Below, in pieces: positions 4,480 through 23,087 of a stretch of 25,163 bases of DNA. Position numbers and translations under genes: made by a program. Origin of the DNA: Campylobacterota bacterium (GTDB lineage: Bacteria > Campylobacterota > Campylobacteria > Campylobacterales > Sulfurimonadaceae). The notes below the pieces were generated by a model, which saw only the letters and a list, made by a program, of their open reading frames with translations, was not told where the DNA came from and ran no database searches. The stretch spans positions 1-25,163 of the forward strand of contig JAYEKO010000085.1 in NCBI GenBank assembly GCA_034661055.1, in the 5' to 3' direction. Each line of letters opens with the position of its first letter. Positions within the stretch are counted from its first letter, which is position 1.

Positions 4480-5259
4480 TTAACGCATCTGCTCTTTCAT
4501 CATCTTAGAGTAAAACTCTTTAGTGGTGGTTTTTTTGTAACCTTTTGGTATGGCAAAAAGGTTACTGTCAATTGATTTTTTAGAGATTAATGTCACTTCA
4601 GAGACTATCTGTGTTTGACCATAGCTCATATCTCGTGTACGCATTGGGAACCCTTTGTTCTCTAGGGGGTCTTGAGCATCACCGCTAGATTTCTGTATCT
4701 GCTTACCCATTTTAATCATCACGTTAATATCAATCTCTCTGCTCACAAGTTTGTCAACTTCTGGGCTTAGACACTCCTCTTCTTGAAACTGTTCAACCAT
4801 ATCGACAATAGAGTAAGTGTCACAACTATACCCTGCTACCTTAGCCGTTCCAGTTTTTTTAACAATAGGCTTAGGACGATCTTGCAGTTGGGGTTGAGCA
4901 TCCATACTCTGTTTCATTCGCTCAAGCATCATGGTAACTTGCGCCTCATCCATACCGCGTGCCAGCATCGCTTCCCTCATCTGCTGTTGCATCGCATTTT
5001 GCATATTTTTGGTTGTCTGACCGAGGTTTTTTGCGTAAGACTCCATGGAGTCCTGAAGATAGATTTTGTGTTGGTCTAAAATAACTGTAATCATCTGTTT
5101 TTTAGTATCAAAAATACTTTTACCCTCTGTTGAGACAACAAGCATTTTGCCATCTTTGTAATAAGTTTTTTCAATGTCGCCATCAGCATTGGAAGTAATT
5201 GTTAAATCGGCTAAAAGTGATGCCCCAAGTAAGGGAAGAATAAGTAAAGTTTTAAGCAT
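4480..5259 (-). CDS. Secreted DUF4412-like protein
   Basis: Signal peptide MLKTLLILPLLGASLLA; KKTGTAKVAGYSCDTY motif; C-terminal FAIPKGYK; AGGAG RBS. Confidence 0.7.
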   Translation of the reverse strand: MLKTLLILPLLGASLLADLTITSNADGDIEKTYYKDGKMLVVSTEGKSIFDTKKQMITVILDQHKIYLQDSMESYAKNLGQTTKNMQNAMQQQMREAMLARGMDEAQVTMMLERMKQSMDAQPQLQDRPKPIVKKTGTAKVAGYSCDTYSIVDMVEQFQEEECLSPEVDKLVSREIDINVMIKMGKQIQKSSGDAQDPLENKGFPMRTRDMSYGQTQIVSEVTLISKKSIDSNLFAIPKGYKKTTTKEFYSKMMKEQMR

Positions 5260-5351
5260 GTAAACTCCTGTGAAATTTATACCCTACGAGTATTTTACAC
5301 AATAGTTTAGCTAAAATGCTATTTAACAAAGATTTGGAGTGAATTTATAGA

Positions 5352-7067
5352 ATGAAAATGGTTATTTTTATGGCACTTTTGCTGGTGCTAAACTTACAAG
5401 CGACACAGCAGAGACCAACAGAGTTAGAACTTAAAAAGATGATAGGAAAAATGCTTATTGTAGGTTTTGATGGGCAGAGTGTTAAGCAAAACAGTGATAT
5501 ATACCGTTACATCAAAGAGTATGACCTTGGTGGTGTGATTTTGTTTGACAGAGATTACTATGCTAGAGATAAAACTAAAAATATTAAGAGTCCTAAGCAG
5601 CTGCAGGCGTTAACAGCACAGCTTCAGGCAATCTCACCAAGACCGCTGATTATCTCAGTTGATCAAGAAGGTGGAAAAGTGGCTCGTCTTAAAAGCAAAT
5701 ACGGCTTTAAAGCAACACCAAGTGCTTATGACATTGCCACTGAGCATAATGGAGCCTACGCTAAAAAGATGTACGATGAGTTAGCTAATGAATTACATGT
5801 AAATGGAATTACATGTAATTTTGCTCCAGTGGTTGATTTGGCTCTTAATCCAAAAAACAGAGTAATCTATCAGCTAAATCGTGCCTATTCAAAACAGGCT
5901 CCAAGTGTGGTGCGCTATGCTCAGATTTTTACGGATTCATTAAATGAACACGGTGTCATCAGTGTTCTTAAACACTTTCCTGGACACGGCTCTTCACTAG
6001 GTGATTCTCATGAAGGCTTTGTCGATGTCACTAAAACATGGAGTTCAAAAGAGCTAAAACCGTATGCGGAGCTTATTGAAAGAGATAAGGTCGATATGAT
6101 TATGACCGCCCATGTTTTCAATGCAAAACTCGACAAAAACTACCCAGCCACACTCTCACATAAGACCAATACTAAACTTTTAAGGGAGTATTTGGGTTAT
6201 GACGGTGTTATTGTTAGTGATGATTTGCAGATGAAAGCGATTGCCTCACAGTATGACCTTAAAGAGACCGTGACGTTGGCCATTAATTCAGGTGTAGATA
6301 TCTTACTTTTTGGTAACCAGTTGGCGCATCAAGATCTTCACAAGTTACTTGACGTCATTTATAAGCAAGTTAGAGCTAATAAAATTAAACTCTCTCGCAT
6401 TATAGAGTCCAATAAAAGAGTTGATACACTACTTAAAAAATTTTCTAAAATAGAGAGAATGGTTCAAAAGCCGATTGACTTTACTCCTAAGCGAGTAGCA
6501 ATGACAAAAGAGTACATCCGTACACATTACGATCTAAACGTGACTAATATTGTCATTGAGCCTAAAAGCATTGTTCTTCACTGGACTGCTATTATGGATG
6601 CAAATGAGTCGTATGCACGACTTAAAAGAGATACCCTCTTTACCGATAGAGAAGATATTGCAGCGGCAAGTCTTTTAAATGTCTCTGCTCATTTTTTAGT
6701 TGAGCGTGACGGCACCATTAATCAGCTTATGCCCGATAACTTCATGGCACGTCATGTAATTGGTCTGAATTACTCTAGTATTGGCGTAGAGAATGTGGGT
6801 GGGCAGAATAATGAGAACGAGGATCTGACTCAAGCTCAAGTTGATGCCAATGTGGAGTTGATACGACACCTTAAGCAGAAGTATCCTGACATTGAGTATC
6901 TAATTGGACATCATGAGTACCGTGCAATGGAGCAGACTTCGTTGTGGCTTGAAAAAGATGATGGGTACCGTACTGTTAAAAAAGATCCTGGTGAAAAGTT
7001 TATGAAAGCCGTTCGAAGCCGACTCAAAGACCTTGGATTTAAAAAAGCTCCAAAAGTGATGCATTGA
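5352..7067 (+). CDS. nagZ: Exported GH3 beta-N-acetylglucosaminidase (NagZ) fused to an Amidase_2 N-acetylmuramoyl-L-alanine amidase
   Basis: Signal peptide; GGVILF, VDQEGGKVARL, KHFPGHGSSLGDSH (NagZ signature), SDDLQM; C-terminal IVLHWTA, VSAHFLVERDG, ARHVIGLNYSSIGVEN, IGHHE, KDPG. Confidence 0.9.
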   Translation: MKMVIFMALLLVLNLQATQQRPTELELKKMIGKMLIVGFDGQSVKQNSDIYRYIKEYDLGGVILFDRDYYARDKTKNIKSPKQLQALTAQLQAISPRPLIISVDQEGGKVARLKSKYGFKATPSAYDIATEHNGAYAKKMYDELANELHVNGITCNFAPVVDLALNPKNRVIYQLNRAYSKQAPSVVRYAQIFTDSLNEHGVISVLKHFPGHGSSLGDSHEGFVDVTKTWSSKELKPYAELIERDKVDMIMTAHVFNAKLDKNYPATLSHKTNTKLLREYLGYDGVIVSDDLQMKAIASQYDLKETVTLAINSGVDILLFGNQLAHQDLHKLLDVIYKQVRANKIKLSRIIESNKRVDTLLKKFSKIERMVQKPIDFTPKRVAMTKEYIRTHYDLNVTNIVIEPKSIVLHWTAIMDANESYARLKRDTLFTDREDIAAASLLNVSAHFLVERDGTINQLMPDNFMARHVIGLNYSSIGVENVGGQNNENEDLTQAQVDANVELIRHLKQKYPDIEYLIGHHEYRAMEQTSLWLEKDDGYRTVKKDPGEKFMKAVRSRLKDLGFKKAPKVMH

Positions 7068-8554
7068 TACAGAGTGGTTTTGCCACCTTAGATTGGCTTG
7101 TTTTTGCAGCGTACTTTCTAATGTTAGCGATTACTTCTTTTATGCTTTCCCAAGGAAAAATTAGAAACTCTCGTGAGTATTTTGTGGGCGGCAACTCCAT
7201 GCCTATGTTGGCGGTTGCCCTCTCTGTTTTAGCAACGTCACAATCTGCCGCTACATTTTTAGGGGGTCCTGAATACTCCTACAGAAATGATTTGACCTTT
7301 TTAGGGTTCTATTTTTCAGCATTTTTGGCAGTTATATTTGTAGCTAAAGTACTAATTCCTCGTTTTTATGCCATTAAAGCAGTAACGGTGTATGAACTGC
7401 TTGAAATACGTTATGGCGAGAATGCAAAACGTCAGGCAGGAGTGATGTTTCTTATAGGACGACTCTTTGCTAGTGGTGCACGCCTCTACATTGGGGCACT
7501 TGCAGTCTCCATGATTTTGTTTAATGACATTACATTTTTACATGTAATTTATGCCATTAGCATTTTGATGATTGGTGCTTTGGCTTACACCTATTTTGGT
7601 GGTGTCAAATCGGTAATTTTTAGTGATATTATTCAAGCTATTACCTACATTGGAGCGGGTGTTGCGGTGCTTGTTTATCTTTACATGAGTTTAGATTACG
7701 ATATGAACAGCATCATAAGTATGTTAAGTGAACAAGAGAAGTTACGACTGATTGATTGGGAACTTAGCTTTTCATCAGAGGGAAAATTTAATATTTTTGG
7801 ACTACTTACTGGCTGGCTTCTTTTAAATATTGCTGCTTATGGACTCGATCAGGATATGACGCAAAGAGTCTTAAGCTGTAGAGATGCTAAAGCTGGACAG
7901 CGTTCACTCTACTACTCTATTGTTTTTACCATTCCTGTGGTCATGCTCTTTTTAGCCATTGGCCTACTGCTGTATCTATTTTACCAACAGCAAGAAGTTG
8001 TTCAAAATTTTAAAGGTGAGAATGTCACCATATTTATGTACTACATCTTAAATGAGATGCCAGATGGGCTTAGAGGGCTAGTCACTGTTGGAGCTGTTGC
8101 TGCTGCACTTTCAAGTACGAATTCTGTTTTGGGTGCCATGTCCTCTGTAGCAGTTGAAGATATTTACCGTCCTTTAAAAACAGAACAGGGTAGCGTTGAT
8201 GAAGCGCATTTTGTCAAAGCGGCACGTGTGGGGGTGCTGGCTTTTGCAGTGGCACTTTCACTTATGGCAATGCTGAGTTATATTGTTCATCAAGCCAGCG
8301 ATTTGCCACTACTGAGTTTTGCTCTGGGTGTAATGGCCTTTGCCTACTCTGGACTTTTAGGAGTCTATTTTTCTGCACTATTTACATCACGAGGTAGTGA
8401 AAAAAGTGTTCTGTTGGCTCTTATTAGCGGCTTTGTTACAGTACTGTCGCTTCAGCCCTATGTTTTTGGAGCCAACATCGGTTTTGCGTGGCAAATTGTA
8501 ATTGGAACTATTGTCTCTTTTGCTACCGCACAGTTAAAAAGCAGTGCAAAGTAG
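7064..8554 (+). CDS. Sodium:solute symporter (SSS family)
   Basis: EYFVGG, ATSQSAATFLGGP, YTYFGGVKSVIFSDIIQ, DQDMTQRVL, AAALSS; many TM segments; TTG start overlaps the nagZ stop. Confidence 0.9.
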   Translation: MIQSGFATLDWLVFAAYFLMLAITSFMLSQGKIRNSREYFVGGNSMPMLAVALSVLATSQSAATFLGGPEYSYRNDLTFLGFYFSAFLAVIFVAKVLIPRFYAIKAVTVYELLEIRYGENAKRQAGVMFLIGRLFASGARLYIGALAVSMILFNDITFLHVIYAISILMIGALAYTYFGGVKSVIFSDIIQAITYIGAGVAVLVYLYMSLDYDMNSIISMLSEQEKLRLIDWELSFSSEGKFNIFGLLTGWLLLNIAAYGLDQDMTQRVLSCRDAKAGQRSLYYSIVFTIPVVMLFLAIGLLLYLFYQQQEVVQNFKGENVTIFMYYILNEMPDGLRGLVTVGAVAAALSSTNSVLGAMSSVAVEDIYRPLKTEQGSVDEAHFVKAARVGVLAFAVALSLMAMLSYIVHQASDLPLLSFALGVMAFAYSGLLGVYFSALFTSRGSEKSVLLALISGFVTVLSLQPYVFGANIGFAWQIVIGTIVSFATAQLKSSAK

Positions 8555-8557
8555 CTG

Positions 8558-9865
8558 TTATGGTTTGTCTCTAGGCACAAACTCTAGTACTGTAGCGTTA
8601 ATGCAAAATCGTCTTGTGCCATCAGCTCTTGGAAATACATGTCCTAGGTGAATACCACTCTTTTTGGCAATGACTTCAATGCGCTGCATTCCAAAGCTAT
8701 TATCTTCTTTTTCAATGGTTGCATTATCTGCTGCCTTATAAAAGCTTAGCCATCCTGTCCCTGAGTTAAAACGCTCTCTAGTGTCAAAAAGGATGTCTCC
8801 AGAGAGTTTATCTACAAAGACACCATCAGGTGTATCTTTAAATATTTTGTACTGTTTGCAGAAACGACTGTCTGTGCTCTCATTAAAAGCGACTCTGTAG
8901 CTTTTAGAGTTTTTTCCAAGTTTAAAATCACCTAATGTCTTATAGAACTGTTTGGCATCCATAAAACCACGATGGGCAAATACCTCTTTAGTGTTGTCTA
9001 TAAAGAGTATAGTGGGTGTACCAGAGAGATCTGTTTTAATCTCAAACCCTTTTAGAGTATCTGCTGTGACTGTTCTAAGCGTAATGGAACCTCTGTATTG
9101 AGAACTTACCTCTTTTTCAAATTTTTCACAGTAAGGACAGTAGGATTTAGACTTTATAACAACTATCTCTTTGTTACCTAGAGGATGTATGAACTCTTTT
9201 TTTTCAGTATCTTTTTCAAACTGTACCCCTGTACTATGGTTAGGACAGTAGCCGTTAGGGTTATTTTTAAGATAGTCTTGATGGTACGCTTCTGCTGTAT
9301 AAAAGGTCTCTAGTTGTGCAATTTGCGTGACAATTTCTCCATAACCTTTCTCGCTGAGTAGCTCTTGGTAGCGCTTTTTTGTCTCATATGCGACTTCTTT
9401 TTGATTGACGGTGGTCCAAAAAATAGCACTTCTGTAGTTGTTCCCAATGTCATTACCTTGTCGATTGAGTTGTGTTGGATCATGAAGTTCCCAAAAAGAT
9501 TCTATGAGTTCTTTGGAGGATGCTTTTGTGTTATCAAAGGTGACTTTTACCGCTTCAGTATGGTTAATAATCTTAGAGTTTAACGGTAGTTTTCTATATT
9601 TTAAGACATCATCGTAGGTTGGATTATTGTAGTTTCCACCTACATACCCAGATGAGACGTCAGCAACACCATCTAAATGTTCAAAATGTTTTTCAACTCC
9701 CCAAAAACAACCTGCGGCAAAATAGATAGTCTCTATATTGCTTGAAACCACCTCTGTAGCGTTTGTATCGCCAACGGTGGTTGTTTCTATATTGTTTGCT
9801 GATGTACCCACGGTGTACCAAAAGTAGCCCATTAGTAGCACAAAAGTAGCCCATAACTTTTTCAA
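8558..9865 (-). CDS. msrAB: Exported peptide methionine sulfoxide reductase MsrA-thioredoxin-like-MsrB fusion
   Basis: N-terminal hydrophobic leader; MsrA GCFWGVE, HDPTQLNRQGND, AEAYHQDYL; central CPYC...GTPTILF; MsrB SGTGWLSF, HLGHVF, RFCIN. Confidence 0.9.
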   Translation of the reverse strand: MKKLWATFVLLMGYFWYTVGTSANNIETTTVGDTNATEVVSSNIETIYFAAGCFWGVEKHFEHLDGVADVSSGYVGGNYNNPTYDDVLKYRKLPLNSKIINHTEAVKVTFDNTKASSKELIESFWELHDPTQLNRQGNDIGNNYRSAIFWTTVNQKEVAYETKKRYQELLSEKGYGEIVTQIAQLETFYTAEAYHQDYLKNNPNGYCPNHSTGVQFEKDTEKKEFIHPLGNKEIVVIKSKSYCPYCEKFEKEVSSQYRGSITLRTVTADTLKGFEIKTDLSGTPTILFIDNTKEVFAHRGFMDAKQFYKTLGDFKLGKNSKSYRVAFNESTDSRFCKQYKIFKDTPDGVFVDKLSGDILFDTRERFNSGTGWLSFYKAADNATIEKEDNSFGMQRIEVIAKKSGIHLGHVFPRADGTRRFCINATVLEFVPRDKP

Positions 9866-10152
9866 TTTTATATTACCTTATTCTTTAATTTGCAATAGTA
9901 TATATTTACAATCTGAACAATTCATAAACATTTTTTATTTCTTCAATTGCCTTTATACTTTCATCTATCATCCTTTTTTAAAAATAATAGCTGATTATGA
10001 TTTTACAGAACTTTTATGACACTATCCAAGTACGAAGTCAAACATAGTTTGTCTATTAATGAAAACAAAGTAAAATGTAATTCATATTAGGGTTTTTAAA
10101 GTTGCCCATAAAGGTGTAATAGTCATAATGAAAAGCAAGATACTCCATAGAG

Positions 10153-11238
10153 ATGAGTAAGCTCTATATTGGTGTGATGTCTGGGACTAGTTTAGATGGT
10201 GTGGATGTGGTCTTATGTGAGATTGATGAATCTTCTTGTAGGCTGCTATTATCTTATGAGTACGGTTTTGATCAAGTGTTAAAAAAAGAGATTTTACATG
10301 TAATTTCACATGAGAGCTCTTTAGCACAAACAGGAAGGCTAAATCATCGCTTGGGTCTTCTCTTTGCTAATTCTGTGAACTCACTGCTAAAGCACCATAA
10401 TATTGACAGAAACAGTATTAGAGCAATAGGCTTGCATGGTCAGACACTTTGGCATGAATCCTCAGGGAATTACCCGTTCTCAATGCAGTTGGGTGATGCT
10501 AATGTAGTGAGCGTAGAGACGGGCATTGATGTGGTCTGTGATTTTCGTAGTAAAGATGTCGCTTTTGGTGGACAAGGGGCCCCTTTTGCTCCCGCCTTTC
10601 ATGAATTCTTATTTCAAGATTTAAAAAATACATGTATATTAAATATTGGTGGTATGGCTAACATTACAGTGTTGGGAGAAACACTTTTGGGGTATGACTC
10701 AGGTCCAGGAAATGTGCTTATGGATGCATGGATAGCAGAGCATAAAAATCTCCCTTATGATGCAGACGGAGCGTGGGCACAGAGTGGTGTATTTAATGTT
10801 GAATTATTAAAACAGTTTTTAGATGAGCCGTTTTTTATGCAGAGCGCTCCAAAAAGTACGGGACGTGAGATATTTAATCTTCAGTGGCTTCATAAGAGAC
10901 TTTATAGCAGCAATCTCAGCAGTAAAGATGTGCAGGCAACACTGCTTGAACTTACCGTTAGAACTATTGCAGATGAGGTAAAAAAGTTTGATGTTACGCA
11001 GCTTTTAGTGTGTGGTGGTGGTGTAAAGAACCACTTTTTAATGCAGCGATTAAATGAAGAGCTTTTAGATGTCAAAGTCACCTCGACAGACATTTACGGT
11101 GTCAGTAGTGAGTTTATGGAAGCCATGGCATTTGCTTGGTTAGCACATAAACGTCTAAATAGAGAGAGTGTGAATTTAAAAGAGGTGACAGGCGCATCTC
11201 AAAATGCTATTTTAGGAGGAGTTTATGCAGCTCATTAA
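10153..11238 (+). CDS. anmK: Anhydro-N-acetylmuramic acid kinase
   Basis: GVMSGTSLDGVD, HGQTLWH, DFRSKDVAFGGQGAP, LNIGGMANIT, DSGPGN, PKSTGRE, EAMAFAWLA. Confidence 0.95.
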   Translation: MSKLYIGVMSGTSLDGVDVVLCEIDESSCRLLLSYEYGFDQVLKKEILHVISHESSLAQTGRLNHRLGLLFANSVNSLLKHHNIDRNSIRAIGLHGQTLWHESSGNYPFSMQLGDANVVSVETGIDVVCDFRSKDVAFGGQGAPFAPAFHEFLFQDLKNTCILNIGGMANITVLGETLLGYDSGPGNVLMDAWIAEHKNLPYDADGAWAQSGVFNVELLKQFLDEPFFMQSAPKSTGREIFNLQWLHKRLYSSNLSSKDVQATLLELTVRTIADEVKKFDVTQLLVCGGGVKNHFLMQRLNEELLDVKVTSTDIYGVSSEFMEAMAFAWLAHKRLNRESVNLKEVTGASQNAILGGVYAAH

Positions 11239-12175
11239 TTATTATGTTGCTCGAACTAAATGGAAGGACTGGACCCTTGAACTAGCTTCTGCAGATGCTA
11301 GCTTTAGGCGTTATTTCCGGATTTATAAGGGAGATGAGAGTGTTATTTTAATGGACTCTTCCCTTGAAAAGGAGTCTTTAAAACCTTTTATTGATGTTAC
11401 TAATAGACTACTACATGTAAATGTAAAAGCGCCTCAAATCTTAGATATAAATATAGAAGATGGTTTTTTGATTATCGAAGACTTTGGAAATGCTCACTAT
11501 CTCAATGTTTTAGATGATACGAATTATGAAAAACTCTATTCGCAGGCAATGGCAGAAATTGTTACAATGCAGGATGCTAGTGCAGAGAATCTACCCTTAT
11601 ATGATAGAGATTTTTTACGTTTTGAGATGGATTTAATGCCACAGTGGTACTTAAAAGAGTATTTACATGTAAATTTGAGTGCTGCTCAAGAAGAGATGAT
11701 TAACACAAGCCTAGATGAGATCATAACGGAAGTGGAATTACAACCCCAGGGGTTATTTGTCCACCGTGATTATCATTCACGAAATATTATGATTCCTAGA
11801 GAGGGAGAGGTTGGGGTTATTGATTATCAGGATGCTATGAGTGGTGCGGTTACGTATGACTTGGTATCACTGTTAAAAGACTGTTATGTTGAGTATGATG
11901 CTCAAGAGGTAGAGCGTTTAGCTCTAAAGTTTCGAGATATGAAAAATTTACATGTAGATGATGCAACGTTCATTAGGTGGTTCGATTTTATGGGGTTGCA
12001 GCGACACATTAAAGTACTTGGTATTTTCTGTCGGCTCTACCTGCGTGATGGAAAAGATGGGTACTTAAATGATCTGCCGTTAACGCTCAAATATGTCATA
12101 CAGACTGCCAATAAATATGAGAAGACACGAAATTTGGCTAAACTTCTTAGTAGTATTAAACTGCCTAAGACATAA
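11225..12175 (+). CDS. amgK: Anomeric MurNAc/GlcNAc kinase (APH fold)
   Basis: ADASFRRYFR, HRDYHSRNIM, IDYQDA, YDLVSLLKDCY, GLQRHIKVLGIFCRL..RDGK; AGGAGG RBS; context with anmK and murU. Confidence 0.88.
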   Translation: MQLINYYVARTKWKDWTLELASADASFRRYFRIYKGDESVILMDSSLEKESLKPFIDVTNRLLHVNVKAPQILDINIEDGFLIIEDFGNAHYLNVLDDTNYEKLYSQAMAEIVTMQDASAENLPLYDRDFLRFEMDLMPQWYLKEYLHVNLSAAQEEMINTSLDEIITEVELQPQGLFVHRDYHSRNIMIPREGEVGVIDYQDAMSGAVTYDLVSLLKDCYVEYDAQEVERLALKFRDMKNLHVDDATFIRWFDFMGLQRHIKVLGIFCRLYLRDGKDGYLNDLPLTLKYVIQTANKYEKTRNLAKLLSSIKLPKT

Positions 12176-12184
12176 GGGGAATGT

Positions 12185-13075
12185 ATGAAATGGGATGACT
12201 TACGACGAAGTAGCAATATTGAAGATATACGTTTTAAAGGGGGTGCGAGTAGAGGTGCAGGACGTGGAAGTCTGCGCCTTTTATTGCCAATTGCACAGAT
12301 GCTTATTGGAACTAAGGTTGGACGCATTGTTTTAGTGGTAGGTGTCGTGGCATACTTTTTGGGATTTAATCCTTTAGCACTGCTAGACTCATCTTCCTCG
12401 TCATCACCAAGTGCCAAAGTCCAATCTTCTGTTGCAGATGATAGAAGTGCTGAGTTTATCTCAGCAGTATTGGCACAAACTGAAGATATTTGGGGACAAC
12501 AATTTGCCCAGTTGGGTGGAACCTACAAGGAGCCAAAGTTAGTATTGTTTCGTCAAAGTGTTCAGAGCGCTTGTGGTTATGCCAGTGCTCAGGTAGGACC
12601 GTTTTACTGCCCAGCTGATCAAAAAGTCTATTTGGACCTCGGTTTTTTTGATGAGTTAAGTCAGCGTCATGATGCTCCTGGTGATTTTGCACAGGCATAT
12701 GTTGTTGCTCATGAGATTGGGCATCATGTACAAAACTTAGTAGGTACATTAAATAAGTCACATAAAGCTAAACAGTTGGCTCAAGGAGATGAGAAAAAGG
12801 CTAACGCTATTCAAGTGAAAGTAGAGCTTCAAGCAGACTGCTATGCAGGTGTATGGGCCCATCATATTAATGCAAAAGGCAATATTATTGAGCAGGGTGA
12901 TATTGAAGAAGCTCTTAATGCTGCTAGTGCCATAGGTGATGATACACTACAGAAAAAAGCTCATGGTCATGTTGTTCCTGATAGTTTTACACATGGAAGT
13001 TCTGCGCAGCGAATGCAGTGGTTTGACAGAGGTTTTAAAAATGGCAATATGAGAGCGTGTAATACAGGAGCTTAA
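12185..13075 (+). CDS. YpfJ-like neutral zinc metallopeptidase with one N-terminal TM segment
   Basis: RRSSNIEDIR, SACG, GPFYCPAD, GDFAQAYVVAHEIGHHVQ (HExxH), ELQADCYAG, FTHGSSAQR. Confidence 0.9.
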   Translation: MKWDDLRRSSNIEDIRFKGGASRGAGRGSLRLLLPIAQMLIGTKVGRIVLVVGVVAYFLGFNPLALLDSSSSSSPSAKVQSSVADDRSAEFISAVLAQTEDIWGQQFAQLGGTYKEPKLVLFRQSVQSACGYASAQVGPFYCPADQKVYLDLGFFDELSQRHDAPGDFAQAYVVAHEIGHHVQNLVGTLNKSHKAKQLAQGDEKKANAIQVKVELQADCYAGVWAHHINAKGNIIEQGDIEEALNAASAIGDDTLQKKAHGHVVPDSFTHGSSAQRMQWFDRGFKNGNMRACNTGA

Positions 13076-13734
13076 TGATGAAAGCGATGATATTAGCAGC
13101 AGGTAGAGGTGAGCGAATGCGACCACTAACCGATGCGCTTCCTAAACCACTATTAGAAGTCCAAGGTAAACCGCTTATTGTATATCATATTGAAAAGCTT
13201 GCTAAAAATGGTTTTAAAGAGATTGTCATTAATCTTGCTCATTTAGGTTACAAAATTCCTGACGTTTTAGGCAATGGTTCTAAATGGAATGTAGAAATTA
13301 CTTACTCAGATGAACAAGATGAGGGAGCACTAGAGAGTGCCGGTGGCATCATTAAAGCTCTGCCTCTTTTAGGTAAAGAGTTTTTAGTAGTAAATGGCGA
13401 TGTCTGGTGTGATTATGAGTTTGATGCAGGTTTTAAATTAAAACAGCGATTAGCACACCTTATTTTAGTTTCTAACCCAGAGCATAATACCAAAGGAGAC
13501 TTTACCCTTAATGATGGTGTAGTGGCTAATGAGGGTGACAATAAGGTAACGTTTAGCGGTATTGGTTACTACCGTGCAGAATTTTTCAAACACTGCTCTT
13601 ACGGCAAAGCAGCATTAGCTCCGCTACTTAGAGAAGCGATGACTAACAGACGTGTTAGTGGTGAGTTATATGCTGGAACATGGCGTGATATTGGAACTCC
13701 TGAGCGTTTAAGGGAAGCTAATCAATCTTTGTAG
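13075..13734 (+). CDS. murU: N-acetylmuramate alpha-1-phosphate uridylyltransferase
   Basis: KAMILAAGRGERMRPLT..PKPLL, LESAGGI, VVNGDVW, NPEHN..GDF, TFSGIG, WRDIGTPERL; TAATG overlap with the upstream gene. Confidence 0.88.
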   Translation: MMKAMILAAGRGERMRPLTDALPKPLLEVQGKPLIVYHIEKLAKNGFKEIVINLAHLGYKIPDVLGNGSKWNVEITYSDEQDEGALESAGGIIKALPLLGKEFLVVNGDVWCDYEFDAGFKLKQRLAHLILVSNPEHNTKGDFTLNDGVVANEGDNKVTFSGIGYYRAEFFKHCSYGKAALAPLLREAMTNRRVSGELYAGTWRDIGTPERLREANQSL

Positions 13735-13754
13735 CAGTCTCTTTTTTTATAAGT

Positions 13755-14624
13755 TTAGGTGCGTACAATAGATGCTTTTAGTGTGTGGGTATCACCTGGT
13801 TCAATAGTGCGTGCATCATCAAAGGCGTTAGCACTCTCAATGCAGACCATAGTCTTATAGCTGTCATTTTCCATGGCACTCATACGAGCACATTTTTCTA
13901 TCCATGGGTTCCAGACTACAGCAGAATTAGAGCCATTAGTGCTAATAGTGATTTTTTTACGTTTGTCCATAAGATTAATAGGCTTATTGACGTTTTGATA
14001 GACACGATCTATCTCGCTATTGAAGGTAACAGCTCCCTTTTGAATTATATTCTCTCCTGTAAGCGCATCAAAATAGGGTTTGTTTTGAAGACCATTTACA
14101 TGTATATTTGAAATATGAGAAATATTAAAGTATGTGTGTAAGGCTTGAGTAATACTAAAGGCTTCTGTGTCAAGGTTTTTAGTGGTGAGTTCAAGTGAGA
14201 GTTCTCTACCAATAGTAAGGGTGTAGGTTAATTCAAATTGGTAGGGCCATAAGGTTAAAGACTCTTCAGAACTAACAAGAAGGAGAGTTAATTTGGAGGT
14301 GTTCTGAAGGTCTTTAGAGTCTATAAGTTTCCACATAAAGGTTCTTGCAAAACCGTGCTGGGGCATATCAGCATCGGTTTTGTGCATTCCAAACCATGGC
14401 CAGCATAGGGGAATGCCACCACGAATTGATTCACCTAAAGTGAAATTTGAAGCCTTGCTTACCCACAATAAGGGTGTTTCACCATGACGTTCATAGTGAA
14501 AGAGATGTGCACCTTGAAGTGCAATCTTAGCTTTGGCTATACTGTTGACAACTTCTATGTACTCAAAACCGTCGGGGAACGTTTTAAAAGAAATCAAACC
14601 TTTTCCTTTAATTTTTGAGTGCAA
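13755..14624 (-). CDS. D-hexose-6-phosphate mutarotase / aldose 1-epimerase family (YeaD-like)
   Basis: IALQGAHL, IRGGIPLCWPWFG, QHGFAR, ALHTYF, IDRVY, VVWNPW, MVCIES; TTG start uncertain. Confidence 0.88.
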   Translation of the reverse strand: MHSKIKGKGLISFKTFPDGFEYIEVVNSIAKAKIALQGAHLFHYERHGETPLLWVSKASNFTLGESIRGGIPLCWPWFGMHKTDADMPQHGFARTFMWKLIDSKDLQNTSKLTLLLVSSEESLTLWPYQFELTYTLTIGRELSLELTTKNLDTEAFSITQALHTYFNISHISNIHVNGLQNKPYFDALTGENIIQKGAVTFNSEIDRVYQNVNKPINLMDKRKKITISTNGSNSAVVWNPWIEKCARMSAMENDSYKTMVCIESANAFDDARTIEPGDTHTLKASIVRT

Positions 14625-14743
14625 AGAAATCTTCTTAATAATTTATTGATTAGTAATAATTATTAGATGTAGAAGTATAACTTATGAAAGCTGACGTTTA
14701 AATTAAAAAAATAATTAAATAAAAACGTCAAAGAAAGCATGGC

Positions 14744-16009
14744 TTACCAAGACTCTTTTTTATGTCCTTTTAGGGCATAGTATAAAATAAAGCCGTAGCA
14801 TGCAACTCCAACCATATAGGCGTTTTGCATACTGCTAAGCTCAGCCATTTTCCCAAAAAGCAGAGGTAAAAAGGCCCCTCCAGCAATTCCCATAATGAGC
14901 AGTGCGCTTCCTTGTGCTGTGTGTCTTCCTAGCCCTTGAAGTGCCAATGGCCAAATAGTTGGCCAAATAAGTGCATTACTAAGACCTAAGAGAGCTACAA
15001 AAGTAATGGGGTCAGGCAAGGTAGCAATACCACTCCATCCCCAAAGAGCAGAAGAGATGGTCGTGCTGTCACTTGAACTACTTAGGACTCCTATTAAAAA
15101 AACAACGCCTAAAGCGGCAGAGAGTATAAGTGCTTTCTCTTGAGAGATAAGCTTGGGAATCATGGTTACTCCAAAAGTGTAACCAATAACCATAAAAAAC
15201 ATTGTATAGGAGGTTAGGGCAGTAAAATTTTCAACTTGAAGTTGTGAGCCAAAGAGCCCAATAGTGTCACCAGCGATGACCTCAATGCCAACATAAAAAA
15301 ATAGTGCAATAGCACCAAGGATAACACGAGGGAACTGCATAATACTTGTTTTAGTAGTATTACTATTATTATTTTCTAGATCAAGATCAGGAAGGTTTGA
15401 GAATTTAACCAAAGCAATAAGCCCTGTTAGTGTAATGGCCATAATAATATAGGGGGTGATGAGTCGAGAGGCTAAGTTCTCTCTGTCAAGTTCACTAAGA
15501 GTTTCATGACTAAAGCTGTTAATATCAGAAAAAATAAGTGCAGTAAAAAAAAGAGGCACCAATACTCCAGCTGTTTTATTGATAATTCCCATAATACTAA
15601 TTCGCATTGCTGCGCTCTCTTGAGGTCCCATATGCACCACATACGGATTAGATGCTGTCTGTAAAATTGTTAGCCCGGTACCAAGAGTAAAGAGTGCGAT
15701 TAGAAAGAGGGTAAAACTTGCAGTAGTTGCAGCGGGAATAAAAAGTAAAGCGCCAATAACCATAATGCCAAGACCAATTGCCATGCCATTTTTATAGCCG
15801 GTTTTATTTAGTACATAAGACATTGGCAGAGCCATAATGGTGTAGGCGATGTAAAAAGCAAAGGTGACAAAGAGCGCTTCAAATTCACTGAGTTGGCAGA
15901 TTATTTTTAAAAAAGGGATGAGTGAACCATTGAGCCATGTCACAAAACCAAAGACAAAAAAGAGTGTTCCAATAATTAACATTGGTACTGTAGAAGACTT
16001 TGTACTCAT
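14744..16009 (-). CDS. FucP/GluP-family sugar MFS transporter, NagP (GlcNAc permease)-like
   Basis: FFVFGFVTWLNGSLIPFLK, GYKNGMAIGL, LQTASNPY, FFYVGIEVIAGDTI, LSNALIWPTIWPLAL; substrate inferred. Confidence 0.85.
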   Translation of the reverse strand: MSTKSSTVPMLIIGTLFFVFGFVTWLNGSLIPFLKIICQLSEFEALFVTFAFYIAYTIMALPMSYVLNKTGYKNGMAIGLGIMVIGALLFIPAATTASFTLFLIALFTLGTGLTILQTASNPYVVHMGPQESAAMRISIMGIINKTAGVLVPLFFTALIFSDINSFSHETLSELDRENLASRLITPYIIMAITLTGLIALVKFSNLPDLDLENNNSNTTKTSIMQFPRVILGAIALFFYVGIEVIAGDTIGLFGSQLQVENFTALTSYTMFFMVIGYTFGVTMIPKLISQEKALILSAALGVVFLIGVLSSSSDSTTISSALWGWSGIATLPDPITFVALLGLSNALIWPTIWPLALQGLGRHTAQGSALLIMGIAGGAFLPLLFGKMAELSSMQNAYMVGVACYGFILYYALKGHKKESW

Positions 16010-16010
16010 G

Positions 16011-16835
16011 TTAAACTCCTACGCTTTGAAGGTACTTTGCTACACCATCTTCATCATTAGTATGTGGCAGTACAATGTCGGCATATTTTTTTAGTTTATC
16101 GTGAGCATTGCTAACAGCAACAGAAGTTCCACTAAGTTGAAACATGCCAAGGTCGTTAAGGTTGTCACCAAAGACAGTAAAGTCTGTAAGATTACGACCA
16201 AGATAGTCACTGACAATGTTTAGACCGTGTGCTTTGTCTGCGTCAGCATGAAGAAGGGTTAAAAAATAGCATCCCATATACGCTTCTGGTGCTAAAATAT
16301 ATTTTAGGTTATTCTTAAAAATTGAGTGCAACTTATCTCTTAGATGCTTAAGGATTGACTCATCCCCCATATAGACCAGTTTGAAGTTATCACTCATGGT
16401 TCTAATCTCTTTTCTCTCTTGTAGATTGTCATCTTTAGTGTAACGTTTTAAGAGATTGTGTTGATACTCATTGCGCTGTGCAGGGTAGAGAAATGCTTCA
16501 TTAAGGTTTTGATCTTCTAATGCAAGAACAAAAGGATAAATGTTTAATTTTGCCCCTTCATCAATAATGGCATCGCCAAGGTCTTGAGTAATGAATTTTG
16601 TATCAATAATTTTTTTATCTTCAGAAACGATGAGAGATCCATCGAGTAGTATCATAGGTGCATTTACATGTAAATTCTTTAAAAACTGTTCGGTCTTTTT
16701 AAAGCTTCGTGCTGTGGCAACAGAGAGAATATGATTGTCTGTCTTAACGTTCCAAATTTTTTGTGTAAAAGGGCTAATACTTAGGTCTGTTCTTAAAAAT
16801 GTGTGGTCAAGGTCGGTAATATAAATGTTATTCAT
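16011..16835 (-). CDS. Cof-type HAD-IIB hydrolase (sugar-phosphate phosphatase family)
   Basis: Motif I DLDHT, motif II ATARS, conserved K (ADKAHG), motif IV GDNLND, NAH, NDEDGVA. Confidence 0.9.
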   Translation of the reverse strand: MNNIYITDLDHTFLRTDLSISPFTQKIWNVKTDNHILSVATARSFKKTEQFLKNLHVNAPMILLDGSLIVSEDKKIIDTKFITQDLGDAIIDEGAKLNIYPFVLALEDQNLNEAFLYPAQRNEYQHNLLKRYTKDDNLQERKEIRTMSDNFKLVYMGDESILKHLRDKLHSIFKNNLKYILAPEAYMGCYFLTLLHADADKAHGLNIVSDYLGRNLTDFTVFGDNLNDLGMFQLSGTSVAVSNAHDKLKKYADIVLPHTNDEDGVAKYLQSVGV

Positions 16836-16887
16836 AACTAGAAGTGTATCAAAAAGTTGCTATACTACTTAGATAATGGAGTAGAAA

Positions 16888-17625
16888 ATGATTAAATATT
16901 ATTTTACATGTATTTTATTGGTAACTTCTTTGATGGCTGAAGTGCAGACATCATACTATAAAAGCGGTGGTGTAAGATTGCAGCAAGAGCTTGAAAATGG
17001 AAAAGCAGAAGGCTTGACACGTGGATTTTATGAGGATGGAACACTTTTTTTTGAGACAGAATATGTAAACGGTATGGCATCAGGAATTAGTAGAGAATAC
17101 AATAAAAATGGTGAACTTGCTACGGTTAAAGAGTATCTCTCTGGTAAAAAAACTGCTGAGGTCTCTTTTAAAAATGGTAAAAAAAATGGTTGGTTTAGGC
17201 AATACAATTTAAATGGCACTGTTAAGCTTGAAAAAGAGTACAGAAATAATCTTTTAAACGGAATAACTCAGAGCTACTACGAAAATGGAAATTTACATGT
17301 AAAAATGAATATGAAGTCTGGAGTTTTACATGGAATCAGTGAGGAGTATTTTGACAATAAGGTTTTAAAAACTGAGACATCATATAAAAATGGCTTAGTT
17401 GATGGTATTGTAAAACACTTCTCAGAAGATGGAAAATTAGAGGCACAGCTTTTTTATGTAAAAGATAAAAAAAATGGCACCGCACTTTTTTATGATAAGA
17501 GTGATAAGATTCAACATGAAATTATCTTTAGTGATGATATGGTGGTAAAAGGCTATGCATATGGTAAAACAGGCGAGAAAAAGATTATGACCTACAAAGA
17601 GGTAAAACAGATAGGTTTTAAGTAG
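16888..17625 (+). CDS. Exported MORN-variant repeat protein (YwqK-like repeats)
   Basis: Signal peptide; repeated YY.NG.L..E..YKNG..G units; GGAG RBS and TGCTATACT extended -10 at 16858-16866. Confidence 0.8.
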   Translation: MIKYYFTCILLVTSLMAEVQTSYYKSGGVRLQQELENGKAEGLTRGFYEDGTLFFETEYVNGMASGISREYNKNGELATVKEYLSGKKTAEVSFKNGKKNGWFRQYNLNGTVKLEKEYRNNLLNGITQSYYENGNLHVKMNMKSGVLHGISEEYFDNKVLKTETSYKNGLVDGIVKHFSEDGKLEAQLFYVKDKKNGTALFYDKSDKIQHEIIFSDDMVVKGYAYGKTGEKKIMTYKEVKQIGFK

Positions 17626-20208: not shown

Positions 20209-21984
20209 TTAGCCCTTGTGATTGAACTCTGGCACAATTTTTTTAAGTTGTGCTACTTTATTTTTACATGTAAATAACTTATAAATTTCTTCTTGTAGCT
20301 CTTTTCTCGGGTAGTGACTACTTTTTGCTATCATAATGGAGCTGAATTTTGTTTTTTCATCACTTGGGTCTATGAGTAGCTCTTCATAGAGTTTCTCTCC
20401 TGGACGTAAGCCACAAAATTCTATCTCAATTTCATCTTCTTTTCCATAAAGTGAAATCATCTGTGAAGCTAAATCAACAATTTTAACAGGTTCTCCCATA
20501 TCAAGAATAAAAAGTTCACCGCCTTTAGCGATAGAGGCTGCCTGTAAAACCAGTTGACATGCTTCAGGAATAAGCATAAAGTAACGTGTCATTCTCTCAT
20601 CTGTTACGGTTATTGGGCCACCATTTTCAATTTGAGATTTAAACTTAGGAATAACACTTCCGCTTGAGCCTAATACATTTCCAAAACGAACACAGACAAT
20701 TTCACTTTTTTTGGTATCAATATTTTGTGCATAGAGTTCAACAACACGTTTTGTAGTTCCCATTACATTTGTTGGACGAACAGCTTTGTCAGTTGAGATG
20801 ATTACTACTTTAGATAGGCTATATTTAACAGCAAGGTCAATGACATTTTTACTTCCAAGGATATTGTTTTCAATGGCAATATCAATATTGGCTTCACAGA
20901 TAGGGACATGCTTGTACGCAGCGGCATGGATAACTATGTCGATTGAGGTTGATCTAAAAAGTTCTTCGAGTTTGAGATAATCAGTTACAGAGATAAGCTT
21001 AAGTTTTGCATCTGGCAATTTCTCTCCAATTTGGTAGAGGTTGTATTCACTATTATCAAGAAGAGTTAGTGACGATGCTCCAAACTTTTGACACTGTAAG
21101 GCAATTTCACTTCCAATGCTTCCACCTGCACCAGTTATAAGCACTGATTTATTTTGAATAAAAGACTCCACAAGAGTATTATCAAGATCTTTGGGGTGAC
21201 GAGCAAGTAAATCTTCGATAGATAAATCTTGAAGTTTTTCATACTGTTCACCAAGAAGTTTTACTTTTTTTATCTCTTTAATGCCATAGTTTGAGAGAGT
21301 GTCATAAAGTGATTTAAGCGCAGATGTTGGTAGGTCTGCAGTAATGATGACTGCTTGAATATCATAGTTGCCTATTGTCTCTTGCAGTTGCATGTGAGAA
21401 TAGACTTTAAGATTATTTATATAAGTACCTTTTGCACTTTGTTCCTCATAATCTGCGAGGCAAACAGCTACGGGATAATATGGAATTTCATTATTGAGAG
21501 CACTTTTTATAATTGAAGATGTTTTAGGGTTGACACCGATAATTAAGGTCGGTTTGTAAGGATTAATATTTTGCTCAATTTTCATGCGTTTTGAGATACG
21601 TAGTATTCCTATAAAGACAAGAGAGAGAATCAGGTCAATAATGATTACACTACGAGGAAAAGGTTCATAATACTCATGAAATGAAATAAAAATAAGAAAA
21701 AAGATACTGTAAGCAAAAATATGAGCTTTAAAAATATTTTTTGATTCACTGAGTCCAAAAAAACGCCATATGCTAAGATAGATATTGTAGCGTAGAAAAA
21801 AGAGTAGTTTTAGAGAAAAAAGTGTAAAAAAGACAATCCAAAAGTTTGTTAGAAATTCTGAAGGTATTTGAAAATTAAAACGTAAAGCATAGGCACTATA
21901 GAGCGTAAGCATAGAGATGAGAAAATCTAAGCTTAGAAAGAAGATAATACGCTTTGCGTTGCTAGGTTTTAATATTCTAGTCAT
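20209..21984 (-). CDS. pglF: Membrane-bound UDP-GlcNAc 4,6-dehydratase (PglF/CapD/WbpM family)
   Basis: N-terminal TM helices; ITGAGGSIGSE, HAAAYKHVP, STDKAVRPTNVMGTTKR, VRFGNVLGSSGSVIP, GLRPGEKLYEEL. Confidence 0.88.
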   Translation of the reverse strand: MTRILKPSNAKRIIFFLSLDFLISMLTLYSAYALRFNFQIPSEFLTNFWIVFFTLFSLKLLFFLRYNIYLSIWRFFGLSESKNIFKAHIFAYSIFFLIFISFHEYYEPFPRSVIIIDLILSLVFIGILRISKRMKIEQNINPYKPTLIIGVNPKTSSIIKSALNNEIPYYPVAVCLADYEEQSAKGTYINNLKVYSHMQLQETIGNYDIQAVIITADLPTSALKSLYDTLSNYGIKEIKKVKLLGEQYEKLQDLSIEDLLARHPKDLDNTLVESFIQNKSVLITGAGGSIGSEIALQCQKFGASSLTLLDNSEYNLYQIGEKLPDAKLKLISVTDYLKLEELFRSTSIDIVIHAAAYKHVPICEANIDIAIENNILGSKNVIDLAVKYSLSKVVIISTDKAVRPTNVMGTTKRVVELYAQNIDTKKSEIVCVRFGNVLGSSGSVIPKFKSQIENGGPITVTDERMTRYFMLIPEACQLVLQAASIAKGGELFILDMGEPVKIVDLASQMISLYGKEDEIEIEFCGLRPGEKLYEELLIDPSDEKTKFSSIMIAKSSHYPRKELQEEIYKLFTCKNKVAQLKKIVPEFNHKG

Positions 21985-23087
21985 TGCAGAGCTTTTTTAA
22001 TTAACGAACAGATATGAAGAACATCATCATGACTCATTTGTGTTCCACTTGGTAAACAGAGTCCCTGTTTAAAAAGATTTTCACTCACGCCAGTACTTAC
22101 ATGTAAAGAGTCTTTAAATAAGGGTTGCAGATGCATAGGCTTCCATAAGAGGCGAGCTTCTATGTTATGCTTTTGCAATTCTTGGATTACATGTAAAGGA
22201 TCTGTTTTGCTCAATGTTAAAGTTGTAAGCCAGCGATTTCCCTTAGTATTTGGAAGCTCAGGCATAAACGTAATCTCTTTTACATCAAAAAGCTCTTGCT
22301 TGTACCATGAAAATATTTGCCTACATTGCATAACTCGTTCATCAAGTACTTCCATTTGAGCTACACCGATAGCAGCTAAAATATTGCTCATACGATAATT
22401 GTACCCATACTCTGTATGTTCATAATAAGGCATATCATCTTTTGCCTGTGTAGCGTAAAAAGATGCTTTGCGAATCCACTCTTTGTTGTGTGAAACTAAA
22501 ATACCACCACCTGATGTACTTAATATTTTATTCCCATTAAAAGAGTAAACTCCAAAATCACCAAAAGTACCACTTTGCTGATTTTTACATGTAGCACCCA
22601 TACTTTCTGCTGCATCTTCTATGAGGTAGATGCCGTGAGCCTTACATGTAAGGGTTATAGCTTCAATATCTGCGCACTGTCCATAGAGGTGTGTAAGAAT
22701 AAGTGCCTTAGGTTTTTTGGGAGCTTTTTTTATCGCCTCTTCAAGAATTAAAGGGTCTAGGTTCCAGCTTTTTTCATCACTATCTATAAAAATAGGGGAA
22801 GCATTTTGATATAAAACAGCACTTATTGAACCGATAAAAGTAAAACTAGAGGCTAAAACATAATCACCTCTACTAATCCCAAGAACTCGCAAGGCAAGAT
22901 GAATTGCGGAGGTGGCATTAATGGTAGCTAAGGCATAAGGTGATGAAGTATAATTTTGCACAATTTCTTCAAAGCGATTTACAAAGGGTCCGAGTGGGGC
23001 GATATAGTTACTCTCAAATGCTTGCGCAATATACTCTTGTTCTTTACCAGACATATGAGGAGGTGAGAGAAAAATTCTATTATCCAT
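21981..23087 (-). CDS. pglE: DegT/DnrJ/EryC1/StrS sugar aminotransferase (PglE-like)
   Basis: RIFLSPPHMSG, IEDAAESMG, SFNGNKILSTSGGG (PLP lysine), GYNYRMSN, WKPMHLQP, GLCLPSG; overlaps the pglF start. Confidence 0.85.
   Translation of the reverse strand: MDNRIFLSPPHMSGKEQEYIAQAFESNYIAPLGPFVNRFEEIVQNYTSSPYALATINATSAIHLALRVLGISRGDYVLASSFTFIGSISAVLYQNASPIFIDSDEKSWNLDPLILEEAIKKAPKKPKALILTHLYGQCADIEAITLTCKAHGIYLIEDAAESMGATCKNQQSGTFGDFGVYSFNGNKILSTSGGGILVSHNKEWIRKASFYATQAKDDMPYYEHTEYGYNYRMSNILAAIGVAQMEVLDERVMQCRQIFSWYKQELFDVKEITFMPELPNTKGNRWLTTLTLSKTDPLHVIQELQKHNIEARLLWKPMHLQPLFKDSLHVSTGVSENLFKQGLCLPSGTQMSHDDVLHICSLIKKALQ

Follow-up and report, generated by a model that had tools for sequence, protein, structure and literature searches.

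How might a diderm bacterium reuse the sugars of peptidoglycan without AmpG, the permease on which such recycling is usually described as depending (an ABC system in some Alphaproteobacteria being the exception)? The question is raised by a gene cluster on contig JAYEKO010000085.1 from the genome of a sulfur-oxidising member of the Sulfurimonadaceae that resembles Sulfurimonas; the 25,163 nucleotides analysed are referred to here as the window and represent contig C85 of a 1.908-Mb assembly of 92 contigs that is 82.96% complete. The cluster encodes an exported fusion of NagZ with an amidase, an SSS-family symporter, the anhydro-N-acetylmuramic acid (anhMurNAc) kinase AnmK, an AmgK-like kinase, MurU, a NagP-like permease and a HAD phosphatase, and close homologues of the fusion and the symporter are labelled Sulfurimonas or Campylobacterota. 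From gene content and gene order, here and in relatives, we propose, with a probability of roughly 0.6, that the cluster specifies an AmpG-independent, anabolic salvage of peptidoglycan sugars in which wall fragments would be dismantled in the periplasm.

The proposed route

In the route that we propose, lytic transglycosylases would release peptides carrying N-acetylglucosamine (GlcNAc) and anhMurNAc (GlcNAc-anhMurNAc-peptides) into the periplasm, where the exported NagZ-Amidase_2 fusion could strip off both GlcNAc and the stem peptide; three matches to SLT-domain lytic transglycosylases are present in the genome. The SSS symporter, its gene apparently coupled translationally to that of the fusion, would then bring in anhMurNAc with Na+, an attached GlcNAc probably being tolerated, and free GlcNAc could enter through the NagP-like MFS permease. 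In the cytoplasm AnmK would convert anhMurNAc to N-acetylmuramic acid (MurNAc) 6-phosphate (MurNAc-6P), a Cof-type HAD-IIB phosphatase may remove the 6-phosphate, which is the task of MupP in Pseudomonas, the AmgK-like kinase would phosphorylate C1 of MurNAc and of GlcNAc, and MurU would make UDP-MurNAc, with UDP-GlcNAc expected to come from GlmU. A 6-phosphatase is required because AnmK yields MurNAc-6P and AmgK needs free MurNAc. Within the 83%-complete assembly we found no Mpl over cut-off and no LdcA, which suggests that the stem peptide is not reused as a unit; a single 21-bit match to MurQ (cut-off 302) and no NagA were found, and the route would therefore save biosynthetic cost rather than feed energy metabolism.

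Canonical recycling genes in the genome and its relatives

The first-pass annotation had noted neither ampG nor murQ in the window, and we found that this extends to the whole 1.9-Mb assembly. Since an assembly of 83% completeness cannot prove that a gene is absent, we surveyed relatives: a family sample of 81 Sulfurimonadaceae genomes (66 of high quality), of which 38 are AnmK-positive and 43 AnmK-negative, and a phylum sample of 251 Campylobacterota genomes. Counts across these relatives are given raw, and kin are not independent.

No genome of either sample, 81 and 251 respectively, exceeded the cut-off of the AmpG model TIGR00901, which the AmpG controls from E. coli and Caulobacter passed. 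A single 19-bit match was seen among the family genomes, and MFS relatives scoring 59-159 bits occur in 17 of the 251 phylum genomes, none of them in Sulfurimonadaceae. The search for a cytoplasmic nagZ or ampD returned from our own assembly only the GH3 and Amidase_2 domains of the exported fusion; no second gene for either domain was found at 83% completeness, and the fusion is the sole copy of each. None of the 81 family genomes passed the MupP model NF009696 (cut-off 359 bits; best match 128 bits), a cut-off that no control genome passed either; our own genome contains two Gph-like HAD-IA open reading frames (ORFs), at C53:8856-9506 and C78:20868-21512, whose scores with this model are 68.5 and 48.6 bits. 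Thus the canonical ampG, cytoplasmic nagZ or ampD, and mupP were not found in these searches, and, as set out below, the symporter, permease and HAD genes co-occur with anmK in relatives, which supports the first-pass interpretation on comparative grounds.

The symporter gene tracks anmK

We found that SSS orthologues (at least 56% identity) are present in 37 of the 38 AnmK-positive genomes and in none of the 43 AnmK-negative genomes, which hold only paralogues of 27-29% identity. In G051, the single AnmK-positive genome without the symporter, AnmK is truncated, the HAD gene contains stop codons and both SSS and NagZ are missing; its cluster is decaying. Across the phylum sample, the nine of 251 genomes with an SSS orthologue are exactly the nine with AnmK; eight belong to Sulfurimonadaceae (our own genome counted) and one, G252, to a second family, and neither gene was found in the two largest families of this sample (81 and 105 genomes). 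Conservation across Campylobacterota, which the first-pass annotation had raised, thus holds for Sulfurimonadaceae and for one genome of a second family and does not extend to the phylum at large.

The association is also one of gene order. Loci were retrieved with AnmK (n = 49), of which 30 are of the Campylobacterota type, mostly from metagenome-assembled genomes of Sulfurimonas, and 19 are proteobacterial. Of the 30 Campylobacterota loci, 27 show an SSS match ahead of AnmK and the remaining three have less than 550 nt of upstream sequence; no SSS match was seen in the 19 proteobacterial loci. We also collected 80 metagenome contigs with close relatives of the symporter (66-81% identity), using an alignment of 18 sequences as query. 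Among the 51 that extend at least 1.5 kb downstream of SSS, AnmK is found within 1 kb in 33 and at 1-7 kb in a further five. The linkage of SSS and AnmK is strong, not universal. Some of the contigs in which no AnmK was found have SSS with only an amidase, or SSS adjoining an OprD-type porin gene; in L132, L115 and L135 the AnmK-less SSS gene is divergent from an OprD-family porin gene, which may point to entry through the outer membrane or to another function of the transporter.

In a representative library we found 8142 relatives of the symporter at E <= 0.001, of which 760 reach E <= 1e-30, and the nearest relative outside the Campylobacterota cluster, from Rheinheimera mesophila, is 51% identical. 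Among solved structures, the best match to the symporter is SiaT, a carrier of sialic acid (PDB 5nv9, E = 9.8e-39, approximately 25-30% identity), in which Ser60 and Thr63 bind the carboxylate of the substrate (PMC5931594; this and the other papers named here are cited from excerpts). These residues align with Ser61 and Thr64 of the window symporter, which are invariant in the 18-sequence alignment, and Gln82 of SiaT is replaced by Tyr. The case for a carboxylate pocket is suggestive only. From its genomic linkage to AnmK we propose that the SSS protein is an importer of anhMurNAc.

Fusions of SSS domains with other proteins were considered as a clue to substrate and rejected. A FastTree phylogeny was built from 121 of the 150 representatives listed (rows of 440-620 residues after trimming were kept and 29 dropped), and the SSS-NamZ fusion (P0346) and the NanM-SSS fusions (P0374 and P0382) are placed in the opposite half of the tree from the query. 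P0346 itself is a protein of 913 amino acids (aa) that combines an SSS domain with both NamZ exo-muramidase domains; it is a singleton on one 6.6-kb contig and may reflect read-through between neighbouring genes.

Predicted export of NagZ and the amidase in most relatives

The fusion protein is 571 aa long, with a GH3 domain at residues 29-359 (3.2e-64) and an Amidase_2 domain at residues 404-530 (1.1e-18), the latter related to T7-lysozyme-type amidases. It carries what we take to be the NagZ signature, KHFPGHG...DSH, and the metal-binding and catalytic motifs of Amidase_2, LHWTA, GHHEY and KKDPG. Its N-terminus, MKMVIFMALLLVLNLQA, opens with a brief charged stretch, which is followed by a hydrophobic core and a small-x-small motif; it contains no cysteine and looks like a Sec signal peptide spanning approximately residues 1-17 rather than a lipoprotein signal.

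Signal peptides were judged by eye from N-termini throughout. Classic signal peptides were seen in 23 of 25 homologues of the fusion (P0008 and P0009 have short atypical starts), in 17 of 19 NagZ loci when these were read upstream to the previous stop, and in eight of nine loci with a standalone amidase, the ninth (L070) running into the locus edge. Genera g1, g2, g3, g5 and g10 have the fused form, and g7, g8, g9, g16, g18 and g20 have two separate exported proteins, NagZ of approximately 370 aa and an amidase of approximately 220 aa. NagZ occurs in 37 of 38 AnmK-positive and six of 43 AnmK-negative genomes; the corresponding figures for the amidase, which is retained alone in many AnmK-negative genera, are 36 of 38 and 18 of 43. 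The claim in the first-pass annotation that muropeptides are dismantled outside the cytoplasm is thus supported by signal peptides nearly throughout the relatives, and by a genome whose sole GH3 and Amidase_2 domains are in a fusion predicted to be exported; it fails for the NagZ of two genomes.

In these two, G008 (L085, G008:C139) and G036 (L087, G036:C123), no hydrophobic stretch precedes the mature start of NagZ, and in G008 the upstream frame runs into the preceding gene. The signal-less NagZ directly adjoins SSS and AnmK in both, and the amidases of both still carry signal peptides. Signal peptides of NagZ were read in 16 AnmK-positive genomes. Among the 14 with an exported NagZ, NagP is present in 13 and absent from one (G040), and NagP is absent from both genomes in which NagZ lacks a signal peptide; there the HAD gene abuts the mutarotase gene, so that NagP is cleanly missing and not lost in an assembly gap. 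This pattern is as expected if exported NagZ frees GlcNAc in the periplasm and NagP imports it; the sample is small, and a single evolutionary event may underlie it.

A cytoplasmic NagZ has a further consequence, since the disaccharide must then cross the membrane, and SSS is the sole candidate in the cluster to carry it. The symporters of G008 and G036 differ from 19 others at only two of 156 invariant columns (A258V and S285A), which gives no clear signal of substrate retuning in these genomes. GlcNAc-anhMurNAc is thus probably tolerated by the symporter. Of the two dedicated monosaccharide importers suggested by the first-pass annotation, both SSS and NagP do track AnmK, and the restriction of the former to free anhMurNAc appears too narrow.

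The cytoplasmic core and the convergent operon

AnmK is encoded by a single copy in our own genome. MurU is present in all 38 AnmK-positive genomes and in one of the 43 AnmK-negative genomes, and amgK adjoins murU in relatives. The AmgK model NF045759 gives the best NCBIfam match to the kinase encoded between anmK and murU, and this operon position backs the predicted AmgK assignment.

Downstream of murU and convergent with it lie the genes for the HAD phosphatase, the NagP-like permease and a mutarotase. The HAD protein exceeds the cut-off of TIGR01484 (64.7 bits, cut-off 41.8) and falls just below that of TIGR00099 (129 bits, cut-off 137); its N-terminus contains DLDHT and its PDB relatives are of the Cof/YidA type. 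It is present in all 38 AnmK-positive genomes. In other lineages (L080, L164, L180, L161 and L146), among them the second family (G252) and metagenome contigs, the HAD gene stands convergent right after murU without NagP, at distances of 21 nt (L164 and L180), 469 nt (L161) and 824 nt (L146). Among 18 contigs that extend at least 2.5 kb beyond murU, eight have HAD and two have NagP. From these associations we put at an even chance the proposal that this Cof-type HAD-IIB protein is a MurNAc-6P phosphatase standing in, as a non-orthologous replacement, for MupP.

The permease matches the NagP model far better than that of the next family, gluP (244 bits), and NagP is present in 34 of 38 AnmK-positive genomes (all but G008, G036, G040 and G051) and in three of the 43 AnmK-negative ones. 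Beyond murU on the other strand, NagP is found in 17 and HAD in 16 of the 30 Campylobacterota loci; L025, L043 and L038 have room beyond murU, yet do not hold NagP/HAD there. We propose that the NagP-like permease imports GlcNAc. The mutarotase is related to PDB 2hta (3.6e-44) and to the yeast hexose-6-phosphate mutarotase 2ciq (1.3e-33). AnmK adds water with inversion (PMC10570956), and a mutarotase that matches the anomer of its product, which would be alpha, to the next step was considered; the gene is present in 37 of 38 AnmK-positive and 17 of 43 AnmK-negative genomes, and given this family-wide spread a housekeeping role is as likely as one in salvage. The inclusion of HAD and mutarotase in the system by the first-pass annotation agrees with their near-constant presence in genomes that have AnmK, and both are less specific to AnmK-positive genomes than it implied.

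One genome that has lost part of the cluster is informative. G080, which is 99% complete, keeps the fusion, AmgK, HAD, NagP, the mutarotase and an MltB-like transglycosylase and is without SSS, AnmK and MurU. At its locus (L060, G080:C4:124000-139000) the HAD-NagP-mutarotase unit faces the transglycosylase gene, amgK and the gene for the fusion. Such a reduced cluster resembles a remnant that serves GlcNAc alone, and it fits a pathway of two branches, with SSS, AnmK and MurU in a muramic-acid branch and NagP and AmgK in a GlcNAc branch. An SLT_2 (MltB-like) lytic transglycosylase gene adjoins the mutarotase gene in L021 (14795-15803) and L060 (7307-8293), and none stands at that place in the window.

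Alternative explanations

Several observations weigh against the proposed route. Absences in our own genome are weak evidence at 83% completeness, so that the conclusion leans on relatives. The AmgK-like kinase and the NagP-like permease both score below the equivalog cut-offs of their models (246.6 against 550 bits and 525 against 625 bits). AnmK was not found downstream of SSS in 13 of the 51 metagenome contigs. Arg135 of SiaT aligns with Ala136 of the symporter, the conserved R133 and R140 being one helical turn off, and the query does not group with the NamZ-linked or NanM-linked SSS clades. G040 has an exported fusion and no NagP beside HAD; as it is represented by a 6.2-kb contig of a 92%-complete genome, it is either a counter-example to the pairing of NagP with exported NagZ or an assembly gap. 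In G008 and G036, SSS must deliver the disaccharide or NagZ is idle there. Exported NagZ and/or amidase occur without salvage genes (G043, G033 and many genera), and these hydrolases therefore have roles beyond salvage. This last observation, together with the need for the disaccharide to reach the cytoplasm in G008 and G036 through a symporter that is almost unchanged, would favour SSS as an AmpG analogue that imports GlcNAc-anhMurNAc or whole anhydromuropeptides, with NagZ and amidase exported mainly for wall remodelling and free anhMurNAc not a physiological cargo. However, the exported NagZ of most AnmK-positive genomes read would split the disaccharide outside, leaving AnmK to be fed only by anhMurNAc; NagP tracks the exported form and is lost with the signal-less one; the amidases are exported even in G008 and G036, which makes whole muropeptides an unlikely cargo; and SSS carriers typically take small solutes. 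We consider this explanation unlikely.

The convergent operon could likewise be an independent sugar module, for uptake of GlcNAc or hexose or for YigL-like relief of sugar-phosphate stress, with MurNAc-6P handled by a generic HAD-IA enzyme. HAD is found in 11 of 43 AnmK-negative genomes and the mutarotase in 17 of these 43, G080 and G043 keep both without AnmK, inserts of 1.5-6 kb separate murU from the HAD-NagP-mutarotase operon in relatives, the HAD protein matches the YigL model weakly, and the two Gph-like HAD-IA genes of our own genome could dephosphorylate MurNAc-6P instead. Such Gph-like matches (E <= 1e-25) do not, however, track AnmK and are found in none of the five other genus-g1 genomes, whereas HAD is constant in AnmK-positive genomes and stands close behind murU even where NagP is missing; NagP is nearly confined to AnmK-positive genomes, and its loss coincides with the relocation of NagZ. 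An independent module is, on balance, improbable, if a little less so than an AmpG analogue. More plausible than either, though still doubtful and in any case compatible with the proposed salvage route, is that the system mainly scavenges the peptidoglycan debris of neighbours rather than products of the cell's own turnover: periplasmic dismantling with high-affinity Na+-coupled import would suit foreign fragments equally, SSS adjoins an OprD-type porin gene in some metagenome contigs, and a related scavenging logic is described in Tannerella (PMC7670621). Nothing computational separates own from foreign fragments, and the cluster has no conserved gene dedicated to uptake through the outer membrane. 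Catabolic loci typically contain sugar transporters and glycosidases, but a cluster for the use of cell-wall sugars as carbon and nitrogen source is very improbable in a genome with neither MurQ over cut-off nor NagA, the more so as MurU, with which the cluster ends, acts in biosynthesis.

Gene arrangement and neighbouring genes

Genes were called from the ORF listing and from scans of the window with Pfam and NCBIfam profiles, and all nine genes named in the first-pass annotation were recovered in place (Table 1); an exported MsrA-thioredoxin-MsrB gene between the symporter gene and anmK had been missed.

Table 1. Genes of the salvage cluster and those interspersed with it, with positions in the window.
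Gene product	Position	Strand	Profile matches and remarks
Exported NagZ (GH3 beta-N-acetylglucosaminidase)-Amidase_2 (MurNAc-L-Ala amidase) fusion, predicted	5352-7067	+	PF00933, PF01510
SSS-family Na+/solute symporter	7064-8554	+	PF00474 5.4e-27; TIGR00813 1.5e-47
MsrA-Trx-MsrB, exported	8558-9865	-	between symporter gene and anmK
AnmK, anhydro-MurNAc kinase	10153-11238	+	NF007139 477 bits (cut-off 367); PF03702 9e-137
AmgK-like anomeric MurNAc/GlcNAc kinase	11225-12175	+	APH fold; NF045759 246.6 bits (cut-off 550)
YpfJ-type Zn metallopeptidase, membrane-anchored	12185-13075	+	NF050010 365.6 bits (cut-off 250)
MurU, MurNAc-alpha-1-phosphate uridylyltransferase	13075-13734	+	NF045761 300.8 bits (cut-off 250)
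YeaD-like hexose-6-phosphate mutarotase, aldose-1-epimerase fold	13755-14624	-	PF01263
NagP-like MFS permease	14744-16009	-	NF046060 (NagP_SO3503) 525 bits (cut-off 625)
Cof-type HAD-IIB phosphatase	16011-16835	-	PF08282 1.5e-43, 149.8 bits; TIGR01484, TIGR00099

The symporter gene overlaps the fusion gene by 4 nt and the amgK-like gene overlaps anmK by 14 nt. From 10153 to 13734 on the forward strand, anmK, the amgK-like gene, the YpfJ gene and murU follow one another with overlaps or with gaps of at most 10 nt; the HAD, NagP-like and mutarotase genes form a second unit on the reverse strand, from 16835 down to 13755, that converges on murU. This arrangement is far beyond chance, and the order NagZ(-amidase), SSS, AnmK, AmgK, MurU recurs in relatives. 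A scan of positions 5000-17200 for promoters and terminators gave no excess over shuffled sequences (37 against 34.9 and 10 against 8.5, respectively).

The YpfJ-type metallopeptidase is a doubtful member of the salvage system. Apart from the window itself, tblastn detected YpfJ in a single one of the 49 AnmK loci, L012; AnmK and MurU are spaced approximately 1.85 kb apart in the other five genomes of genus g1 and approximately 0.94 kb apart in G064, which suggests a genus-wide insert. Its N-terminal membrane anchor would place the catalytic domain in the periplasm, where trimming of released stem peptides is conceivable. YpfJ proteins have no known function, and the amgK-murU operon context offers a lead.

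Only the window has the msrAB insert, which is absent from all 49 AnmK loci, the closest (L012) included; the MsrA-thioredoxin-MsrB fusion has a signal-like N-terminus. The gap between the symporter gene and anmK holds other inserts elsewhere, approximately 1.3 kb in L012, a DNA methylase gene in L021 and genes for Mrr and a metallophosphatase in G252, and it seems to be an insertion hot spot. Further along the window, at 20209-23087 on the reverse strand, a PseB/FnlA-like membrane-anchored UDP-GlcNAc 4,6-dehydratase is encoded together with a LegC/PseC-like aminotransferase; these genes are of the kind that serves nonulosonic acids or bacillosamine-type sugars and are unrelated to the salvage cluster.

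Comparison with known systems

The anabolic recycling of MurNAc in Pseudomonas proceeds through AmpG, NagZ, AmpD, AnmK, MupP, AmgK and MurU (PMC5371407, PMC5371409). The cluster resembles it in its cytoplasmic core of AnmK, a phosphatase, AmgK and MurU, which would lead to UDP-MurNAc and bypass MurA and MurB. It differs in lacking AmpG and in having NagZ fused to the amidase in a protein predicted to be exported rather than cytoplasmic; two candidate monosaccharide permeases replace the single muropeptide permease, and the candidate phosphatase is a Cof-type HAD-IIB protein (Hydrolase_3), whereas MupP is a Gph-like HAD (HAD_2) protein (PMC5371407).

Together with B. subtilis, Tannerella is the closest precedent. 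In Tannerella forsythia, MurT, a member of the sodium symporter superfamily, imports MurNAc (PMC5790795), and the authors state, in the excerpt cited, that no importer of anhMurNAc is known and that MurT is a reasonable candidate (PMC7670621). Both systems would thus combine a sodium symporter for muramic-acid sugars with AmgK and MurU in a diderm; Tannerella depends on AmpG for disaccharides, has MurK and MurQ and lacks AnmK (PMC5790795, PMC7670621). The window symporter shares the SSS-family fold with the MurT class, and the NamZ-fused SSS protein lies in a different clade from it. Similar-looking clusters seen in Bacteroidota offer a lead only. In Agrobacterium, recycling without AmpG relies on the YejBEF-YepA ABC importer of muropeptides (PMC9790009), in which whole muropeptides are imported and processed in the cytoplasm, whereas here a secondary carrier would act after periplasmic processing. 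The cargo proposed for the symporter is, like that of SiaT, a carboxylated N-acetyl amino sugar, but the genomic context is that of muramic and not sialic acid.

In B. subtilis, an exo-glucosaminidase and an amidase likewise act outside the cytoplasm and the monosaccharides are imported separately. That organism is Gram-positive and uses phosphotransferase-system transporters with a catabolic exit through MurQ, whereas the present system belongs to a diderm, has its hydrolases fused, and would handle an anhydro sugar, import through SSS and MFS carriers and be anabolic only, via AmgK and MurU. AmiD of E. coli and AmpDh2 and AmpDh3 of P. aeruginosa are periplasmic Amidase_2 enzymes that act on (anhydro)MurNAc-peptides; they are stand-alone lipoproteins, whereas the Amidase_2 domain here is part of a predicted soluble exported protein and is fused to NagZ in several genera. 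The combination of a diderm envelope, an anhydro sugar, SSS and MFS carriers, a NagZ-amidase fusion, an anabolic-only exit and a Cof-type phosphatase is not found in the excerpts of the papers compared, and our search of the open-access literature returned no paper linking these genes (AnmK, an anhMurNAc symporter, peptidoglycan recycling) to Sulfurimonas or Campylobacterota.

Implications

Taken jointly, the observations suggest a fuller scenario, which we hold as tentative and at somewhat less than even odds. The SSS clade would be the first dedicated Na+-coupled importer of anhMurNAc, also taking GlcNAc-anhMurNAc and replacing AmpG lineage-wide; a Cof-type HAD would replace MupP; and relocation of NagZ would be compensated by gain or loss of the GlcNAc permease, making the whole a modular, evolvable circuit.

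MurA (TIGR01072) was not found over cut-off in the 83%-complete assembly, the only match being AroA (C84:4936-6219), which probably reflects an assembly gap; MurNAc auxotrophy was considered and rejected for want of complete genomes. Should MurA truly be absent from complete relatives, salvage would be essential, as in Tannerella.

The cluster points to a third solution for peptidoglycan recycling in diderms, in which processing is periplasmic and monosaccharides are imported by secondary carriers. It offers a concrete candidate for the importer of anhMurNAc, a route that the Tannerella authors call unresolved in the excerpt cited (PMC7670621), and a concrete candidate MurNAc-6P phosphatase where AnmK, AmgK and MurU occur without MupP. 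Chemolithoautotrophs fix all of their own carbon, and for them salvage of amino sugars would be a real saving; it may also allow cross-feeding on the wall debris of neighbours.

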